Assembly: GCA_963790205.1 (NCBI GenBank)
Contig: CAWBNQ010000003.1
Location: 992,001-1,056,000 of the forward strand
DNA from: Nitrospirota bacterium
Lineage (GTDB): Bacteria > Nitrospirota > UBA9217
Reading direction: 5' to 3'
DNA: 64,000 nt
Shown here: positions 532-9,538 of the stretch, one piece after another
Position numbering within the stretch: position 1 is the stretch's first letter
Layout: every line of letters begins with the position of its first letter
Notes under the pieces: model-generated
Databases searched by the model: none
The model's input: only the letters and a program-made list of their open reading frames with translations
What the model was told of the DNA's origin: nothing
Made by a program: the position numbers and the translations under genes

Positions 532-1479
532 GTGCTTAAGGAATTCGCCGACTACATTACCTATACACTCCTGAAACTGGAACCGACCAGCCATTTGGGG
601 GACGCCCTCAATTTCTTTATCTACGATACCCTTAAGATATTCCTGCTGCTCACCACCATTGTATATGTAGTGGCGATCATCCGGGCATACTTCCCGCCTG
701 AAAAAACCAAGCGGATACTGTCGCACAAGCGTTTATACATCGGTAATATCATGGCTGCCTTGCTTGGTATCGTCACACCGTTTTGTTCCTGTTCCGCAGT
801 CCCGCTCTTCATCGGCTTCGTAGAAGCCGGAGTGCCTCTCGGCGTTACCTTCTCTTTCCTCATCTCCTCGCCCATGGTAAACGAAATTGCCTTGATCATG
901 CTGTGGGGCCTCTTTGGCTGGAAGATCGCCTTGGTCTACACCGGCACCGGGGTCGTCCTGGCGATCCTGTCCGGTATCGTCATCGGCAAACTCAAGATGG
1001 AAAAGTATGTCCAGGACTATGTCTGGGAAATAAAGGCGGGAACAGGGGAGATCGTGGAAACGAACTTCCGCGAGAAACTCATTTATGCGCGTGACTATAC
1101 AACGGAGCTTTTGAAGAGGATCTGGCCGTATGTGATCATCGGTATTGCGCTGGGCGGCATTGTTCACGGCTACATCCCTACCGATTTCGTGGTCAAATAT
1201 GCGGGACGCGACAACCCCTTCGCCGTACTGGTCGCTGTTTTGATCGGCGTCCCGCTTTACAGCAACGCTGCCGGCATGATTCCTGTCGTACAGGCCCTTG
1301 TGGGAAAAGGAATGGCCATGGGCACGGTGCTTGCCTTTATGATGTCGGTTACCGCGATATCATTTCCCGAGGCGGTTATTCTCAAGAATGTACTGAAGAT
1401 GCGTCTCATCTATACTTTCTTCGGGATTGTGGCAGTGGGCATTATTATTGTTGGCTATCTGTTTAACGCAATTTTATAG
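532..1479 (+). CDS. DUF318/ArsP-type permease
   Basis: Multi-TM protein with TPFCSCS, SSPMVNE and GVPLYSN motifs; GAGGAGG RBS; adjacent to arsR/acr3. Confidence 0.9.
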   Translation: MLKEFADYITYTLLKLEPTSHLGDALNFFIYDTLKIFLLLTTIVYVVAIIRAYFPPEKTKRILSHKRLYIGNIMAALLGIVTPFCSCSAVPLFIGFVEAGVPLGVTFSFLISSPMVNEIALIMLWGLFGWKIALVYTGTGVVLAILSGIVIGKLKMEKYVQDYVWEIKAGTGEIVETNFREKLIYARDYTTELLKRIWPYVIIGIALGGIVHGYIPTDFVVKYAGRDNPFAVLVAVLIGVPLYSNAAGMIPVVQALVGKGMAMGTVLAFMMSVTAISFPEAVILKNVLKMRLIYTFFGIVAVGIIIVGYLFNAIL

Positions 1480-1491
1480 GAGGATTCAGTG

Positions 1492-1734
1492 ATGGAAATC
1501 AAAGTGCTCGGACCCGGTTGCGCGAATTGTGTCAAGATGGAGGACCTGGCGAAGACCGCCGTGAAAGAACTCGGTATCGAAGCAAAGATCGAGAAGATCA
1601 CGGACCTCGGCCAGATCGCCAGGCACGGCATTCTATCAACGCCGGGTCTTATTGTGAACGGCAAGATCAAACATTCCGGAAAGCCGTTGCCCAGCCTGGA
1701 CAAAGTAAAAGAGTTGATCAAAGGCGAAGCGTAG
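1492..1734 (+). CDS. Small redox-active disulfide protein (MTH895/thioredoxin_3 family)
   Basis: IKVLGPGCANC...STPGLIVNG signature. Confidence 0.9.
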   Translation: MEIKVLGPGCANCVKMEDLAKTAVKELGIEAKIEKITDLGQIARHGILSTPGLIVNGKIKHSGKPLPSLDKVKELIKGEA

Positions 1735-1743
1735 GAGAAAACT

Positions 1744-2118
1744 ATGAACGATCTGGTGACGATATTCAAGGCACTTTCCGACGAAACCAGGCTCAGGATC
1801 ATCAAGCTTCTGGAAGAAGGCGAGCTGTGCGTGTGCGACATCACCGCTGCGCTCGATATGGTGCAGCCGAAAGTGTCCTTTCATCTCAGCGCCCTGAAGG
1901 AAGCGGGGCTCATCAAGGACCGTAAATCGGGTAAATGGATACATTACAGCCTGAATGAAAAAGATCTATTCAGGCGAATGCTGATCCTGTCCGCCTGCGA
2001 GCGGATGCAAGACGGCGCGGTATCGGGAGACAGAAAACGGTTAACTGCCTTTCTGGGGAGCAAGGAATCCGGAGGCAAGGTCGTTACGCTGAAGAGCAAG
2101 TCCCGGTGCTGTGGGTAA
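1744..2118 (+). CDS. arsR: ArsR/SmtB family repressor
   Basis: FKALSDETRLRI, ELCVCDI box, HTH, C-terminal CC pair. Confidence 0.92.
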   Translation: MNDLVTIFKALSDETRLRIIKLLEEGELCVCDITAALDMVQPKVSFHLSALKEAGLIKDRKSGKWIHYSLNEKDLFRRMLILSACERMQDGAVSGDRKRLTAFLGSKESGGKVVTLKSKSRCCG

Positions 2119-2160: not shown

Positions 2161-3237
2161 ATGGGTGAAAACACAGGGAAAAAGCTTTCGTTTATGGACC
2201 GGTTTCTTACGCTCTGGATCTTCGCGGCAATGGCTTTCGGTGTCGGCCTCGGGTATTTCATCCAGGGCACCGAAGCCTTTATCAACAGCTTCCAGGTCGG
2301 AACGACCAATATCCCGATTGCCGTTGGGCTCATCCTCATGATGTACCCGCCGCTGGCCAAGGTCAAGTATGAGGAACTCGGCGAGGTCTTCCGGAACAAA
2401 AAGGTCCTGGGCCTCTCGCTCGTCCAGAATTGGGTTATCGGCCCCATTCTGATGTTCGCGCTCGCGATCATCTTTCTCCGGTCCTATCCCGAATACATGG
2501 TCGGTCTCATCATGATCGGCCTTGCCCGGTGCATCGCGATGGTGATCGTCTGGAACGACCTTGCCTGCGGCGATCCCGAGTACGCCGCCGGTCTCGTGGC
2601 GTTCAACTCTATTTTCCAGGTTCTTTTCTTTTCCATCTATGCCTATATCTTCATAACCGTGCTCCCTGTCTGGTTCGGACTTAAGGGGGTTGTCGTCCAT
2701 GTGACGATAGGCCAGATCGCCGAAAGCGTGTTCATCTACTTGGGCATACCTTTTATAGCAGGCATGCTGACCCGTTTCGTACTCATCAAGATCAAGGACC
2801 GCCAGTGGTACGAGTCGGTCTTCATCCCGAAGATCAGCCCGATCACGCTCATCTCGCTCCTGTTCACCATCATCGTTATGTTCTCGCTCAAGGGCAACTA
2901 TATCGTCAGGCTTCCCCTTGATGTGCTGCGCATCGCCGTCCCGCTGCTGATCTATTTCGTGGTCATGTTCCTGGTGTCGTTCTATCTCGGGAAGAAGATC
3001 GGGGCGGATTATCCGAAGACCGCGACGCTTTCTTTTACTGCCGCGAGCAATAACTTTGAACTGGCAATTGCCGTGGCAGTGGCCGTTTTCGGAATCAATT
3101 CAGGAGCCGCCTTCGCGGCAGTCATCGGGCCGCTGGTAGAGGTTCCGGTGCTGATCGGGCTCGTGAACGTGTCACGATATTTTCAGAGGAGATATTTTTC
3201 TGTCGAGTATTGCCGGGTAACCAAGACGGCACAGTAA
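2161..3237 (+). CDS. acr3: Acr3 family arsenite efflux transporter
   Basis: [44 protein letters not shown] motifs. Confidence 0.97.
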
Positions 3238-3262: not shown

Positions 3263-3643
3263 ATGAAAATATTGAAAACAACCTTGACGACATTCATAGG
3301 GATACTGCTTCTGGCCGGCTACAGCCAGGCGAGCGACGTTGACAACGTGCTTGCCCAGGCAAAAAAGGACGGCAAGGTCGTTATGCTGGAGCTTGGCTCC
3401 GTGGGCTGCATCCCCTGCGAGCAGATGAAGCCGGTGATGGATAAGCTCAGGTCCGGCTACAAAGACAAGCTGGAAGTCTATTTCGTCGACCTAAGAAAGG
3501 ACAATGCAACCGGTAGGCGTTTCGGCGTGTACGTAATCCCGACGCAGGTCTTCCTGGACCAGAACGGCAAGGAATTCCACCGACACGTCGGGTTCTATGC
3601 CTATGATGAGATTACGCCGGTATTAAAGAAGGCGGGATTGTAG
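3263..3643 (+). CDS. Exported thioredoxin family protein
   Basis: N-terminal signal peptide, CIPC active site, IPTQVF cis-Pro motif. Confidence 0.88.
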   Translation: MKILKTTLTTFIGILLLAGYSQASDVDNVLAQAKKDGKVVMLELGSVGCIPCEQMKPVMDKLRSGYKDKLEVYFVDLRKDNATGRRFGVYVIPTQVFLDQNGKEFHRHVGFYAYDEITPVLKKAGL

Positions 3644-3664
3644 CAGAGATGCGAGGTGTCTGCA

Positions 3665-3889
3665 ATGGCGAATCAAATATGCTGCTGTTTCGGTTACACC
3701 GATGAAGACATCATCAGGGATGTACAGGGCAATAAGGGCGTCTCGACCATTCTGGAAAGAATCGTGAACGAGAAGAAAAAGGGCGGGTGCAACTGCGGGA
3801 CCAATCATCCGCTCGGGCGGTGATGCATGGCTGATGTCCGCCGGGTCGTGGACAAGGCAAAAGAGCAGCTCGGGACTATCGGAGGATAA
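3665..3889 (+). CDS. Putative selenoprotein, Cys-rich BFD-like/CopZ-associated [2Fe-2S]-type domain (74 aa, Sec53)
   Basis: GAGGTG RBS, ATG 3665; reads ICCCFGYTDEDI...GGCNCGTNHPLGR-TGA(3821)-CMADVRRVV...TAA 3887-3889; the TGA occupies the first Cys of the family CxC..NPxGxCC motif; fills the operon gap. Confidence 0.75.
3835..3854 (+). promoter_or_regulatory. Candidate bacterial SECIS hairpin
   Basis: Stem TGTCCGC/GTGGACA with loop CGGGTC, starting 11 nt after the in-frame TGA. Confidence 0.6.
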
Positions 3890-3901: not shown

Positions 3902-4617
3902 ATGAAATTCGCTGTACTCGGAGACATACACGGCAATATCGAGGCGCTCACTTCCGCTTATTCCGCCGTCCAGCTCCTGAAGCCGGACAAAGTGTATCAT
4001 CTCGGCGACCTCGGAGGCTACTCACCGTTCGTAAATGAGGTAGTGGCTTTTCTCATCGAGCATAACATCGAGGGCGTTCAAGGGAATTACGACGAGACCG
4101 TCGCGAATGACCGGGAGCACTGCGGGTGCAAATACGAAGACCCGGTCCAGGAAGAGATGGCGAACAAGTCTTTTGAGTGGACGAAGAAGCATGCTTCCCC
4201 GGAGACGAAAGAGTACCTGAGAAAGCTTCCGTTCTCGATATCGTTCGCTGTGGAGGGGAAAAAGGTGCTGCTGTTCCATGCCACGCCTTCGAAGAACAAC
4301 TTGTATTGGTTCGAGGACCGGCCGGATAAGTTCTTTCGGGAAATGGCGGCGAAGACCGACGCCGATGTGATGATCTACGGACATACGCACAAACCGTATT
4401 GGAAGGATTTTGGCGGCACGGTCTTCGTCAATGCCGGAAGCGTGGGCAAATCAAAGACGGGAATCCGAGGGCTTGTGTGCCCCTGATCACTATAATAGCG
4501 GACAAGGTGAATGTCGAGTTTCTTCGGGTCCCTTACGATGTACAAAAGACGGCTGACGCTATTATTGCGAGCGGGCTGCCGGGGTATTTTGCGGACAGGC
4601 TGAAAGAGGCCAGATAG
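3902..4617 (+). pseudogene. Metallophosphoesterase (calcineurin-like) with one frameshift near 4451 (or sequencing indel)
   Basis: GDIHGN, LGDL, GNYD, GHTH, NAGSVGK motifs; KDGNPRAC...RVPYD continues in another frame to 4617. Confidence 0.85.
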
Positions 4618-4621
4618 AGGC

Positions 4622-5311
4622 ATGGAATCCCTGTTCAACAACATTCAGCACATCATCCAGCACCGGCAGGGGATGGCGTTCCTCGCCGTCTTCGTAGCCG
4701 GGCTCATTTCCGCCGCCAGCCCCTGTGTGCTTGCGGCCATTCCGCTCATCATCGGCTATGTGGGAGGTTACTCGGAAGGGAACAAGAAAAAAGCGGCCCT
4801 CTATTCGCTCGTCTTCATTCTCGGTCTTTCCATCACCTTTACGCTTCTCGGCGCAGCTGCATCGCTCATGGGCGGATTACTCGGCTTCATGGGCAGGTGG
4901 CTCTACATTGCGCTTGCGGTCATCGCTGTGATCATGGGTCTTCAACTCATGGGCGTCCTCTCAATTCCGCTGCCGTTTCAGAAGATCAGGATGGTCAAGA
5001 GCAAGGGGCTATGGGGTGCCTTCTTCCTCGGGCTTCTGACCGGCACGGTCTCTTCCCCCTGCGCCACGCCGGTTCTGGCCGTGATCCTTGCTTATGTATC
5101 CACCCAGGGCGATATCCTGTACGGCGGGTCGCTGCTCTTTGCGTATGCTGTGGGACATTGCGCGTTGATTTTCATCGCCGGTCTTTCCATCGGTCTCACG
5201 GAGAGCATTGTAAGTTCGAAAGGTATCAAGAATTTCTCTCTCTATTCGAAACGGTTCAGCGGCGTATTGCTGACGTTGGCCGGGCTGTATATCGGCATAG
5301 TAAACTTTTGA
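4622..5311 (+). CDS. ccdA: CcdA/DsbD-type membrane electron transporter
   Basis: About six TM segments; SPCVL and SPCATP redox Cys motifs. Confidence 0.9.
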   Translation: MESLFNNIQHIIQHRQGMAFLAVFVAGLISAASPCVLAAIPLIIGYVGGYSEGNKKKAALYSLVFILGLSITFTLLGAAASLMGGLLGFMGRWLYIALAVIAVIMGLQLMGVLSIPLPFQKIRMVKSKGLWGAFFLGLLTGTVSSPCATPVLAVILAYVSTQGDILYGGSLLFAYAVGHCALIFIAGLSIGLTESIVSSKGIKNFSLYSKRFSGVLLTLAGLYIGIVNF

Positions 5312-5457
5312 GGACGCAATTATGCGGCAACGAAAAGTAAGAATTAAAAAACGTTTCTCCGTCATTTGCCACTGCTGGTGGAACGGCTGGTAACTCGGTT
5401 GAGGTAATGGAGTTCAATGTTCGACGTAAAACCAACTCATCACAACGGAGGTCCGCC

Positions 5458-6066
5458 ATGAAAGAATTTAATGAGTATTTTGACACCGCACTGAAGTTTC
5501 ACGGCCATAAGTGTCCGGCCATGCCCATGGGTCTGAGGGCCGGTCTCGCTGCCATGAAGGTGCTCGGCGTTGAAAGGTCGCAAGACAAGGAACTCTTCGT
5601 GGAAGCGGAAACAGGCAAAGGACATGCCGCCGGATGTTTCCTGGACGGGATCATGACCGCCACCGGCTGCACCTACGGAAAGGCGAACATCCAGAAGCTC
5701 TATTACAACAAAATGGCCTTCACGCTCATAGACGCCAAGAGCGGCAAGGCGGTCCGGGTCTCTCTGAAGCCTGAATTCTTTGAAAAGGCCCTCAATTCGC
5801 CCTTTGTACAGGAGAGGAAAAAAGGCGTGCCGCCTCAGGATATTCCCGCATCGATTACGGACCCTCTCGTCGATCGGATATTGGGACTTTCTGAAACCGA
5901 CTTCCTGAATATCAGCGACGTGTTCCATAAAGACCAGAAGAAGGGATCTTCGAATTTCGAGATCAAACGCTGCGCGAAATGCGGAGAGGCGGTGTTCACC
6001 GATAAACTGACAAAGGCTCCTGACGGACGGCTTCTTTGCATCCCCTGCGCTGAACACGGGAAATAG
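5458..6066 (+). CDS. FmdE/FwdE family protein with C-terminal C4 zinc finger
   Basis: FHGHKCP, CFLDG, TGCTYGK; CAKC...CIPC; GGAGG RBS before ATG 5458. Confidence 0.88.
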
Positions 6067-6229: not shown

Positions 6230-6982
6230 ATGCTTACCATCAATGCAGCCGCGGCCGCCCTCGTCTTTGTCTTCACCACGTTTCTGACCATTGCGGGCGT
6301 AGGCGCGGCCTTCATAGTGATCCCAACGTTCTACTGGCTCGGGGTACCGCTTACCGAGGCCATGGCCATCGGCCTGCTCTTGAACGCCATCAGCATGACC
6401 TTTGCTTCGGCCAACTATATCCGCTACAAACTTGTCGTGTTCCGAACGGCCGTACCCATCATCGTGCTTGCCATCGTCTTTTCTCCCCTGGGCGCGTACT
6501 CGACGCGGTATTTTCCTAAGAACGTTCTTATTCTGCTCTTCGTGCTCTTTCTCGTATTCGCTGCATCAATGATGCTTTTTTACAAGCCGAAGAAGAGAAC
6601 GGATGGCCAGGGAGACAGCGGGAAGGAACTCAAGACCGGCATTGGTCTGGGCATCGGGGCTGGGTATCTGGGCGGCCTCCTGGGTGTCGGCGGTGGGAAC
6701 TTCATCGTTCCGGCCCTCGTCTGGCTCGGATTCGATCCTAAAAAAGCATCCGCTACTACTGCCTTCATCGTTGTCTTCTCCTCGCTCTCGGGCTTCTTCG
6801 GCCATGCGGCCACAGAGTCCGTTAACTGGAGCCTTCTGGCGTTTGCAGCAATCGGCTCGGTCGCGGGGGCGATCCTGGGCTCATGGCTCATGCACAAGAA
6901 GCTTAATGCAAATCAGGTGAAGAAGATCATCGGTGTCGTGCTCTATGCCATAGCAGCAAAGATGGCGTGGGGATTGCTGTAA
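6230..6982 (+). CDS. TSUP/TauE-SafE family (sulfite exporter-like) transporter
   Basis: About 8 TM segments; GLLGVGGGNFIVP and KKASAT repeat motif. Confidence 0.9.
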   Translation: MLTINAAAAALVFVFTTFLTIAGVGAAFIVIPTFYWLGVPLTEAMAIGLLLNAISMTFASANYIRYKLVVFRTAVPIIVLAIVFSPLGAYSTRYFPKNVLILLFVLFLVFAASMMLFYKPKKRTDGQGDSGKELKTGIGLGIGAGYLGGLLGVGGGNFIVPALVWLGFDPKKASATTAFIVVFSSLSGFFGHAATESVNWSLLAFAAIGSVAGAILGSWLMHKKLNANQVKKIIGVVLYAIAAKMAWGLL

Positions 6983-7046: not shown

Positions 7047-8354
7047 ATGCGTTCATACGCTATTTTGCTCCATCTTGCTTTGCTGATACAAATTCCTCTC
7101 GCTGCTTACGGCGAGCCCCTTACTCTCAAGGAGTGCCTCACGGCGGCTTTAAGCAACAATCCGGCCGTGGCCGAAGCGCGGCTGAACGTGGCAGCCGGAG
7201 AACAGGGGATCGCGAGCGCCTCGGGAAAGCATTATCCCCGTCTTTCACTCAACGCGAACGTCACCGAGCTTGAATATCCCGTACCGTACATCCCGGCGCA
7301 ATCAGTGACGATAGCGCCCCACTTCAGCGACTACTATGCCTCGTGGGCAGCCCAGATGACCGTGCCCCTCTACCAAGGGGGGCAGATCGTGAACGGCGTT
7401 GACCTGGCGAAGGTCAGAAAGGACATCCAGGAACAGGGATTTTCCCTCACCCGTTACGAGCTCATCGCCAATACGGTGAATACCTACAACAAGATCCTTC
7501 AATTGCAAAAGCTCCGGGAAGCATCCCAGGCGTCGGTGAATGCCCTTGAGGAGCAGCACAAGAACGCGCAACTTCTCTTTAATGTGGGGAGGACCGCCCG
7601 CGTCGATCTTCTGAAAGTGGACGTGCAACTGGCCAACGAGCAGCAACGGCTCCTCACGGTGGACGAGGCGCTCAAGACCTTGTCGGCGACGCTTCGGTTC
7701 CTGATGGGTGAACAGTCTGATGCTTCTCCCGGGGTCCCGACGCTTGCCGACCCGCTCGCAATGCCTCCCGTAACAGCCGATTTTAACGACGGGCTGGCCG
7801 CGGCACGCGCCGGCAGGCCGGAGTACATGATCGCCCGCGCCGGCGTGGCGGAGGCTGAGTTGAGCAAAAAGATCGCTACTGGAAAAATGCTGCCTGCAGT
7901 GAATGCCTTTGCCGGGTACCTCGACCAGTACGGCTTCAACCCGAGGTTCGATGAGGGGAGCTGGTTTGTAGGAGCCACTCTAAGCATCCCACTTTTCGAC
8001 CGGTCACTTTACGCTGACCGCGCCCGCGAACGGATCCTGCAACTTCGCGCCGAGCAGCGGCTCAAGACCGTCGACAACCAACTGCGGCTCGATATTGAAA
8101 CGGCCTCTTCTTCCCTCGCGGACAGCAGGAGCCGTGTGACAACGGCCGAACGGGTCGTGGAGCAGGCCGACGAGTCATTCCGCATCGAGCAGGAGAGGTA
8201 CAGACTCGGCGCAGGCGCGATGGTGGACCTGCTTCTTGCTCAGGCGGCCGACGTGACAGCCGTTGCGAATTACACCCAGGCCCTTTACGACTATAACGCG
8301 GCCGTTGTCGCCTACCGAAAGGCGACCGGCACTTTGGAGGAATACCTCAAATGA
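7047..8354 (+). CDS. TolC family outer membrane efflux protein
   Basis: Signal peptide; AL.NNP, PLYQGG, RYRLG...DLL..Q repeats. Confidence 0.92.
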   Translation: MRSYAILLHLALLIQIPLAAYGEPLTLKECLTAALSNNPAVAEARLNVAAGEQGIASASGKHYPRLSLNANVTELEYPVPYIPAQSVTIAPHFSDYYASWAAQMTVPLYQGGQIVNGVDLAKVRKDIQEQGFSLTRYELIANTVNTYNKILQLQKLREASQASVNALEEQHKNAQLLFNVGRTARVDLLKVDVQLANEQQRLLTVDEALKTLSATLRFLMGEQSDASPGVPTLADPLAMPPVTADFNDGLAAARAGRPEYMIARAGVAEAELSKKIATGKMLPAVNAFAGYLDQYGFNPRFDEGSWFVGATLSIPLFDRSLYADRARERILQLRAEQRLKTVDNQLRLDIETASSSLADSRSRVTTAERVVEQADESFRIEQERYRLGAGAMVDLLLAQAADVTAVANYTQALYDYNAAVVAYRKATGTLEEYLK

Positions 8355-9538
8355 AACGGAACATTCTCATAGCTGTTATCTGCATTGTGGCGATTGCCGG
8401 TGTAGCCATCGTCGCACTCAAGGCGCGAAAGATCGCGGCCCTGCCCAAACCTCAGGTCGTTCCTCCGGCCGTGCAGGCCGCCCTGGCAGTGAAGGGTTCG
8501 CTGGAGATAACGACCCACTATTTGGGAAGCATAGAGCCGTTTACCAGAAGCGATCTCTCCGCGCGCATATCGGGGAACATCGTGAGCATCTCCAAGCGGG
8601 AAGGGGACCTGGTCCGGCAGGGCGAGGAACTCATCGTTATCGACGACCGGGAACTGGTTGACCGCTCCACGGCAGTACAGTCCGAAGTGCTGGCAACTCA
8701 GCAGAAGCTGGCCGGAGCAAAAAGCGCCTACGAAACCCAGAAGTCCGTCTATGATCGGGACGTGGCCCTGCTGAAGATCGGGGCGATCTCCCAGGAGGCG
8801 CTGGAGCGGTCCCGCGCGACATTGGACGGCGTTAAGGCGACCGTGGAAGCCTACGAGGAAAGCATTAAGGGGCTCTCGATGAACAGCGCCGTGGCCCGGA
8901 CCCAGGCCGGCTATGCACACATCACCGCGCCCTTCACCGGCATCGTGTCCAAGCGGTGGGCCGATCCCGGAGATCTGGCAACGCCGGGAAAACCGCTTCT
9001 CACCATTGAGAAAACCTCGACCTATAAGGTCCTGGCCCAGGTGCCGCAGGAGGACCTGGCCGAAATACGCCGGGGTACACGCGTCTACTTGACGAGCGGC
9101 GAACGGAGCATCGAAGCAACGATCAACCGGGTCTACCCGGCGCTGGGCAAGAACATGCTGGCTACGGTGGAGGTGCTGACCAGGACATCGCCCTTCAATT
9201 TGCCCTCGGCTTCCACCGTCGGCTTTGACCTGGTCACGAGGCGGGTCAAGGGGCTGATCGTCCCGGACCAAGCCGTGGTGAAGACCGATAAGGGGACCTT
9301 TGTGTACCAGGTAAAAGACGGCCTGGTCCAGATCGTGCCGGTCACGCTTCTTGGCATGGGGAACGGCAAAGCGGCGATCAGCGGTGTGGAGCCCGGCGAT
9401 CAGGTAGCCGTGGCCCAGGAGAACAAACTCCTCACCCTGGCTGAAGGCAGCAAAGTCACCTTGCCGGCACAGGAGAAACCGGGGGTGTCAGCCCAAGGCG
9501 CCGAGAGCAAATCGGTTCCTGCCGGAGGCAAGCCATGA
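8351..9538 (+). CDS. RND periplasmic adaptor (MFP)
   Basis: N-terminal TM, REGDLVRQGE lipoyl half-motif, ITAPFTGIV; ATGA overlap with neighbours. Confidence 0.92.
   Translation: MKRNILIAVICIVAIAGVAIVALKARKIAALPKPQVVPPAVQAALAVKGSLEITTHYLGSIEPFTRSDLSARISGNIVSISKREGDLVRQGEELIVIDDRELVDRSTAVQSEVLATQQKLAGAKSAYETQKSVYDRDVALLKIGAISQEALERSRATLDGVKATVEAYEESIKGLSMNSAVARTQAGYAHITAPFTGIVSKRWADPGDLATPGKPLLTIEKTSTYKVLAQVPQEDLAEIRRGTRVYLTSGERSIEATINRVYPALGKNMLATVEVLTRTSPFNLPSASTVGFDLVTRRVKGLIVPDQAVVKTDKGTFVYQVKDGLVQIVPVTLLGMGNGKAAISGVEPGDQVAVAQENKLLTLAEGSKVTLPAQEKPGVSAQGAESKSVPAGGKP

Follow-up and report, generated by a model that had tools for sequence, protein, structure and literature searches.

Between a thioredoxin gene and a metallophosphoesterase gene in the arsenic operon of a Nitrospirota bacterium (GTDB lineage UBA9217) lies a short reading frame that contains an in-frame TGA codon. 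The operon is part of the window analysed here, a 64,000-nt stretch of DNA (contig CAWBNQ010000003.1 of assembly GCA_963790205.1, positions 992,001 to 1,056,000 of the forward strand). A first-pass annotation, made from the letters of this DNA, had proposed that the frame is a selenoprotein gene invisible to standard gene callers, and the parts it named—a ribosome-binding site, an ATG, a TGA at 3821 with Cys next to it, 21 further codons and a 12-nt gap—are all present in the sequence. From the ATG at 3665, the frame reads MANQICCCFGYTDEDIIRDVQGNKGVSTILERIVNEKKKGGCNCGTNHPLGR, the TGA (3821–3823), Cys, MADVRRVVDKAKEQLGTIGG and the TAA at 3887–3889; that is, 52 codons ending in GGCNCGTNHPLGR, the TGA, and 21 codons (Cys TGC plus 20) before the stop. 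A Shine-Dalgarno-like GAGGTG, read from the sequence, occupies positions 3653–3658 of the plus strand, 6 nt 5′ of the ATG, and purine-rich stretches also lie 5′ of the start codon in many relatives. The next gene starts with an ATG at 3902, 12 nt past the stop. The features of the gene, with U standing for selenocysteine (Sec) and SECIS for selenocysteine insertion sequence, are as follows.

3665–3889, plus strand: predicted selenoprotein gene; 74 codons and the TAA stop, for a CopZ-N-terminal/BFD-like domain that stands alone and contains U53
3821–3823, plus strand: in-frame TGA, predicted Sec53; TGA conserved at the same column in relatives
3824–3826, plus strand: Cys54 codon (TGC), second half of the U-C pair
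3835–3854, plus strand: SECIS-like hairpin with a 7-bp stem (3835–3841 paired with 3848–3854) and the loop CGGGUC (3842–3847)

TGA and Cys at one aligned column

A six-frame search of 401 genomes of the phylum gave matches in 53 of them and listed 57 places, 36 with an in-frame TGA and 21 with no stop; the 30 best (loci L022–L051) were used for gene extraction and for an alignment, A2. In every one of these 30 loci, TGA is followed by Cys at one common column and then by x-x-D-V-[RH]-[RQ]-[VL], and the read-through frame stays open for 14–30 codons past the TGA; in ten relatives it next meets a second TGA, where we took the open reading frame (ORF) to end. Cys6, Cys8, Cys42, U53, Cys54 and Asp57 are invariant in this alignment, Cys44 is present in 29 of the 30 sequences, and past the site Val58, Arg60, Val61 and Asp63 are at least 90% conserved. 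Most of the relatives carry a G[RK]UC motif, which in the window protein is G51-R52-U53-C54. The six Cys/Sec positions, Cys42 among them, are invariant in the 47 sequences of a wider alignment, A3. If the frame is read through, homology should continue past the TGA, and we found it both in the invariant Cys54 and Asp57 and in a weak match to the Pfam domain Fer2_BFD that covers residues 5–62, across the TGA. Residues 6–8 of the window protein are Cys-Cys-Cys (3680–3688), a segment that is Cys-Tyr-Cys in 28 of 29 relatives and Cys-Phe-Cys in one (L037). Ser replaces Cys44 in one species (L038, identical to L088).

A second sample, from a scan of one genome per species, comprised 80 loci; these share genomes with the 30-locus set and include many kin, so the counts are not independent events. 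Here, TGA and Cys alternate at the site, which the first-pass annotation had proposed to check: 54 loci read TGA-Cys, 25 read Cys-Cys and one (L117, from a metagenome-assembled genome) is frameshifted just 5′ of the TGA. The carriers of the TGA form belong to Nitrospirota, Desulfobacterota-type lineages, Spirochaetota and Dehalococcoidia; those of the Cys form belong chiefly to Acidobacteriota and to archaea of the Methanoperedens type. When 1.84 billion cluster representatives were searched with a profile, 1330 matched at E ≤ 0.001, 510 of them at E ≤ 1e-10. Among the best 150, 72 stop just before the site, 60 are Cys-Cys, eight Trp-Cys and three Arg-Cys (P0040, P0041 and P0090), four have other residues and three lie outside the search pattern. 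Trp at the Sec column (..RWC.., in P0029, P0032, P0036–P0039, P0044 and P0046) is most likely a TGA rendered as Trp by a gene caller using another code. An in-frame UGA that aligns with Cys in homologues is one criterion for a bacterial Sec-decoding gene, and this is the arrangement seen at the site.

The genome also encodes the machinery that such decoding calls for. The selB, selA and selD genes match at 390, 609 and 380 bits, respectively, each above its curated cut-off, and two tRNA-SeC genes with the anticodon TCA (contig C8, 121705–121799, and contig C1, 656901–656993) score 60.6 and 57.4 bits, above the Rfam cut-off. About 6 kb separates one of the two tRNA-SeC genes from selB-selA. To our knowledge, it is unusual for a genome to have two copies of selC. 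The selD gene (contig C2, 70287–71201) itself contains an in-frame TGA at the usual Sec position (GAG-TGA-ACK), and an 8-bp hairpin starts 12 nt past it.

We considered several other readings of the TGA. Genome-wide reassignment of the codon is ruled out, as TGA ends 17 of the 33 long non-overlapping ORFs of the window and is the commonest stop there. Contigs from four public metagenome runs (two studies) differ from the window elsewhere and keep TGA at 3821–3823, with no other letters at the codon in any of the four; a sequencing error is excluded by these unchanged contigs together with the conservation of the site. Conservation likewise rules out a pseudogene.

How the gene appears in databases bears on a further alternative. 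Predicted proteins, searched through a word index, yielded 27 relatives, each of 52–58 amino acids and covering at most 70% of the read-through query, and the nine that we fetched all end at ...PLGR, cut at the same place. Contrary to the first-pass annotation, the gene is not invisible to gene callers; they do call it, but only as a truncated product, of 52–58 amino acids in 27 of 27 relatives. One could take these calls at face value: the TGA would then be a real stop, the product a 52-residue peptide, and the downstream stretch conserved for another reason, perhaps as an RNA element, perhaps as the decayed end of a gene. The uniform gene calls and the prevalence of TGA among the stops of the window agree with this view. 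However, the short product would lose its last helix and the conserved Cys54, the Cys-form homologues read straight on with CC and the same helix, the frame is open in 30 of 30 loci, and the hairpin described below occurs only in the TGA forms; moreover, the full Sec machinery is present, and the Fer2_BFD match needs residues up to 62. We regard a real stop as highly improbable. The UGA at 3821–3823 is almost certainly decoded as Sec, and the 74-codon frame at 3665–3889 is very probably a genuine gene that decodes Sec and belongs to the kind catalogued as 'CopZ family form 1, GxUC', a statement of identity that does not extend to function. Comparative sequence analysis thus supports the selenoprotein interpretation first put forward for this locus.

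In practical terms, public databases contain this gene, like dozens of its relatives, as stumps of 52–58 amino acids; some go under the name 'hypothetical protein' or 'bacterioferritin-associated ferredoxin', and a few have Trp at the Sec site. Since the gene product scores below the cut-off of every curated NCBIfam and Pfam model, automatic annotation will go on missing the gene. With the family already catalogued, the finding is mainly an annotation fix.

The hairpin downstream of the TGA

Both a single-sequence fold and RNAalifold on the 30 relatives place the start of a hairpin stem 11 nt past the TGA, confirming the 7-bp hairpin reported in the first-pass annotation. Across the 30 sequences, 98.1% of the stem cells are paired, compared with 27–58% in controls in which the 3′ arm was slid by 1–3 columns; across 54 distinct sequences the figure is 96.0%, and the inner five pairs are never broken. 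Compensatory changes occur at the column pairs 15-34, 18-31 and 20-29. Pair 15-34 changes from U-A to C-G in five of the 30 sequences, and pair 20-29 is found as G-C (14), G-U (12) and A-U (4), with zero mismatches. Columns 20 and 29 hold the middle bases of codons 59 (Arg/His) and 62 (Val/Ala), respectively; because these columns pair, all four sequences with His59 carry Val62. The RNA structure of the hairpin thus visibly constrains the peptide sequence.

The 25 Cys-form genes served as a control: at these columns only 75 of 175 cells (43%) are paired, and no stable hairpin forms. With pairing high in the TGA forms and at this level in the Cys forms, the hairpin tracks the TGA and not the protein family. 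Its dimensions also lie within all four published constraints on bacterial SECIS elements; a scan of this type had been suggested for the locus. As set out in the passages of a recent review, the bacterial SECIS model specifies a loop of 3–9 nt, a stem of 4–16 bp, a G in the first two loop positions, a UGA-to-loop distance of 16–37 nt and a minimum free energy of at most −7.5 kcal/mol (PMC13188914). The hairpin described here has a 6-nt loop, CG[G/U]GUY, in which position 2 is G, followed by G or U; its stem is 7 bp long, the UGA-to-loop distance is 18 nt, and the folding energies are −9.9 to −13.9 kcal/mol.

The predicted iron-sulfur domain

No Pfam match to the window protein was found at E ≤ 0.01. 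At E ≤ 1, Fer2_BFD matches 29 of the 30 members (best 7.8e-4), and the NCBIfam models CopZ_Nterm_CC (NF047645) and CopZ_Nterm_CU (NF045877) match all 30, every time below threshold. The first of these models describes a putative iron-sulfur cluster-binding metallochaperone, the second the Csac_0668 family of 2Fe-2S cluster-binding (seleno)proteins. The CopZ_Nterm_CC match of the window protein is limited to profile positions 86–137 of 138, that is, the last 52; the N-terminal part is absent from the protein. Given the 30-sequence alignment, AlphaFold2 yields a model with a mean predicted local distance difference test score (pLDDT) of 86.5, in which residues 55–73 form the last helix. Among 48,161 chains, the best structural matches of the model are two entries for Pseudomonas aeruginosa Bfd, at a modest Z of 5.8 and a root-mean-square deviation of 2.4–2.5 Å over 53–54 residues; the next row has Z 4.9.

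When Sec and Cys forms were mixed, the resulting profile (A3) matched 2HU9_A, the N-terminal domain of Archaeoglobus fulgidus CopZ, at E 1.5e-8 over its BFD-like part. This alignment sets Cys6/Cys8 against the CYC of CopZ, Cys44 against Cys109, U53 against Cys118 and Cys54 against Cys119, and leaves Cys42 without a partner. Longer Cys-form relatives in the phylum have a zinc-ribbon-like N-terminus followed by CYCF ... C-x-C ... NPxGSCC, and one of them matches 2HU9 at E 3e-18. Five of 14 further stretches examined (L057, L058, L060, L061 and L062) showed no match to the motif. In two relatives (L052 and L056, from genomes G154 and G187), the zinc-ribbon and BFD-like parts run on into a membrane segment at the C-terminus that contains two vicinal Cys (..LCCVGPFVLV..), a tail that we take to resemble MerT-type mercury transporters. 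To go by its paper's title, 2HU9 is a [2Fe-2S] protein of solved structure. From these alignments, the window protein is likely a small stand-alone CopZ-N-terminal/BFD-like protein that holds a [2Fe-2S] cluster.

By homology, Cys6, Cys8, Cys44 and one of U53 and Cys54 would bind the cluster, so that Cys42 and the remaining half of the U53/Cys54 pair would lie next to it unbound. Should Sec53 be one of the four ligands, the protein could simply carry electrons at a low potential that an Fe-Se bond tunes. The BFD-like part of the A. fulgidus CopZ N-terminal domain has only five Cys, those aligned to Cys6, Cys8, Cys44, U53 and Cys54, so an all-Cys cluster there must use at least one Cys of the CC pair; and with a sister 'CU' subfamily that has Sec at the other position of the pair, Sec is likely a ligand in one of the two forms. 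Against this, the sixth conserved Cys (Cys42, invariant in the 47 sequences) could complete an all-Cys set, and presumably it is Cys119, the equivalent of Cys54, and not Cys118 that is the ligand in 2HU9, where the full set would be Cys75, 77, 109 and 119. We consider a simple carrier with Sec53 as ligand improbable.

The family itself is not new. [quoted passage not shown] No curated hidden Markov model covers the small form at its cut-off. In the parts consulted, the GOS paper that both reviews cite for form 1 has no 2Fe-2S, BFD, CopZ or copper chaperone in its text, and four of its supplements contain no 2Fe-2S, BFD, CopZ, COG2906 or iron-sulfur; the text of an ISME J 2016 paper has no 2Fe-2S, BFD, CopZ or copper chaperone either. 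Full-text literature searches, with results judged by title and the start of the abstract, returned nothing that links the selenoprotein family to arsenic.

Neighbouring arsenic genes and the predicted Sec-Cys pair

In the window, the selenoprotein gene sits within a same-strand array with short gaps, made up of the following further genes.

532–1479, plus strand: ArsP_1-type permease
1489–1734, plus strand: ArsE-like small thioredoxin
1744–2118, plus strand: ArsR-family regulator (Pfam HTH_5)
2161–3237, plus strand: Acr3-type arsenite efflux gene (Pfam SBF, 210 bits)
3263–3643, plus strand: thioredoxin-family gene with an N-terminal signal-like segment (Pfam Thioredoxin_2, Thioredoxin), directly upstream of the selenoprotein gene
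3902–4617, plus strand: YfcE-type metallophosphoesterase, in two frames in the assembly (3902–4486 and 4399–4617)
4622–5311, plus strand: CcdA/DsbD-type membrane thiol-disulfide transporter (Pfam DsbD_TM)
5407–6066, plus strand: FmdE-like protein
6230–6982, plus strand: TauE

The best promoter-like site (470–498) lies upstream of the permease. The hydrophobic N-terminus of the upstream thioredoxin, MKILKTTLTTFIGILLLAGYSQA, suggests that this protein is exported. The metallophosphoesterase is a single ORF in relatives, with fragmented copies also in L034 and L036; contigs of three of the four runs carry an extra G after 4452 together with T4451C, giving GKPKDGNP and joining the two frames, so that the break near 4452 is either a real 1-nt deletion or an assembly error. 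Past the ars/thiol cluster, a TolC-like outer-membrane gene and a resistance-nodulation-division (RND) adaptor gene follow on the same strand (7047–9538).

Among the 30 phylum loci, searched over 1.5-kb flanks, 19 have an ars-specific neighbour (Acr3, ArsR, ArsA or ArsE-like), and Acr3 relatives 86–94% identical adjoin the selenoprotein gene in other loci. Within 2.5 kb (tblastn, E ≤ 1e-6), an ars-type gene accompanies 30 of the 54 TGA-form loci versus one of the 25 Cys-form loci. The neighbours counted among the 54 were ArsR (27), Acr3 (21), ArsE-like (19), thioredoxin (19), CcdA (16), ArsP-type permease (15), phosphoesterase (10), FmdE (9), ArsC of the low-molecular-weight-phosphatase type (8), TauE (8) and ArsA (1). 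In 19 of the 54, a thioredoxin gene lies upstream of the selenoprotein gene; CcdA follows it in many Nitrospirota loci, where the order thioredoxin–selenoprotein–CcdA recurs, and four Desulfobacterota-type loci share the order ArsR, permease, selenoprotein, ArsE-like. One Nitrospirota subgroup (L040, L042, L043 and L047, also recorded as L093 and L100) has the gene after a DUF1722/2-thiouracil-desulfurase-family gene, with FmdE-like, CcdA or ArsR nearby and not Acr3. From these counts we infer that the selenoprotein may be a cytoplasmic accessory of thiol-based arsenic or metalloid handling.

Such an accessory could work as follows. With the UGA at 3821–3823 read as Sec, helped by the conserved hairpin that starts 11 nt downstream, the product would hold a [2Fe-2S] cluster beside the Sec53-Cys54 pair. 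This vicinal pair, helped by Cys42, could form a soft-metalloid site next to the cluster that would capture As(III) or pass electrons to a bound metalloid, and the metalloid might then be handed to the efflux proteins encoded alongside (Acr3, the ArsP-type permease, ArsA). In keeping with a ligand role, Sec may serve as a metal ligand in several metal-resistance selenoproteins, according to passages of one review (PMC13188914). A soft-metalloid Sec-Cys/Cys42 site serving the adjoining efflux proteins is the mechanism that we tentatively prefer, well short of even confidence.

The same gene order invites a redox reading as its main rival. Here, Sec53-Cys54 would be a selenenylsulfide with redox activity, coupled to the [2Fe-2S] cluster as in a small-scale version of ferredoxin:thioredoxin reductase, and the protein a dedicated cytoplasmic electron donor for CcdA that keeps the exported upstream thioredoxin reduced. 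The gene lies between thioredoxin and CcdA genes on the same strand in 15 of the 54 TGA-form loci, with CcdA no more than about 50 nt from the stop in 12 of these 15; the window order is thioredoxin–selenoprotein–phosphoesterase–CcdA, and a thioredoxin-fold neighbour (thioredoxin or ArsE-like) occurs in 26 of the 54. Mammalian thioredoxin reductase has a vicinal Cys-Sec redox centre of its own. Sec typically occurs in redox sites, as review passages put it. On the other side, 39 of the 54 loci are without the thioredoxin/CcdA pair, some lying directly after Acr3 or ArsA, and every thioredoxin–selenoprotein–CcdA case comes from one phylum, so that these loci are kin. Moreover, CcdA systems normally use general cytoplasmic thioredoxin. 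We rate this redox role as unlikely, and yet as the most credible of the alternatives to a metalloid site.

Several observations weigh against the metalloid-site reading and the assignments beneath it. Among public RNA runs, none was listed as containing the stretch. For the window protein, the Fer2_BFD match scores 14.4 bits (E 0.049), below the gathering cut-off of 26, and the matches to CopZ_Nterm_CC and CopZ_Nterm_CU score 42 bits against a cut-off of 100 and 25 bits against 190. A Foldseek search of the PDB gave no match at E ≤ 0.001, with Bfd on top at E of about 7, and the Sec-form profile (A2, 30 sequences) found no relevant entry among PDB sequences, 1u9p alone appearing at E 0.068. 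The identity with form 1 (exemplar WP_245779778.1) stands on motif and domain name only. Taken singly, the hairpin is not significant (z = −1.73, with 13 of 200 shuffles folding equally well), and the hairpin sequences are kin, so that shuffle controls overstate significance; with the single sequence unremarkable, the case for the element rests on the comparison with relatives. Finally, 24 of the 54 TGA-form loci have no ars-type neighbour and are surrounded by mixed, unrelated genes, and the ars link is concentrated in one phylum.

A bolder proposal would merge the two roles: Sec53, at or one residue from a cluster ligand, would form with Cys54 and Cys42 a cluster-coupled site that acts as selenenylsulfide and As(III) binder, an idea we hold as speculative and rather unlikely. 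If true, this 74-residue protein would contain an iron-sulfur-selenium redox centre without a biochemically described precedent, feeding CcdA and an exported thioredoxin or carrying arsenite to Acr3. The sister subfamilies place Sec at two neighbouring positions of one Cys pair and, again if true, one of them would have an Fe-Se bond in its [2Fe-2S] cluster. The family occurs widely among anaerobes, namely in Nitrospirota, sulfate-reducer lineages, Spirochaetota and Dehalococcoidia. Selenium predicted to sit beside an iron-sulfur cluster, encoded within an arsenic operon, is relevant to how the chemistries of selenium and arsenic meet in the cell. Being very small, the protein offers a tractable system for asking whether Sec is a metalloid ligand or a redox partner of the cluster. 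Specialists may also find interest in the TGA-specific hairpin that shapes the peptide, the two sister Sec forms and the recurrent placement in arsenic operons.

Among known systems, the closest is the catalogued form 1, which shares with the window protein the motif G-R-U-C, a single Sec and a CopZ-type BFD-like domain; G-R-U-C in such a domain is why we file the protein under form 1. The review passages give neither a function nor an ars link for that form. With NF047645 and 2HU9, the protein has in common the pattern CxC ... C ... NPxGRCC, U53 taking the place of the first Cys of the CC pair. Proteins of the NF047645 type have an extra N-terminal zinc-ribbon part, and CopZ also a C-terminal copper-binding domain, whereas the window protein consists of the bare C-terminal 52-position part and differs further in its predicted Sec and in one extra conserved Cys, Cys42. 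The Csac_0668 family ('form 2', NF045877) has the same domain and puts Sec within the same C-terminal Cys pair, but second (CU) where the window protein has it first (UC); of the 161 positions of that model, about the last 60 match. Bfd (PF04324; PDB 4E6K and 6E6Q), the best structural match at 53–54 of its 56–57 residues, shares the N-terminal CxC. Its second Cys pair is spaced differently from the C-x-C-x8-U-C of the window protein, it has no Sec, and no bacterioferritin gene lies near the selenoprotein gene. Should the preferred metalloid-site reading be right, the functional likeness would be to ArsD, a small cytoplasmic ars-operon protein of unrelated fold, with neither Fe-S cluster nor Sec, that takes up As(III) at a vicinal Cys pair and supplies an efflux pump with it; the analysis detected no homology to ArsD, though no test was aimed at it. 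One relative of the selenoprotein gene (L038) lies directly after arsA.

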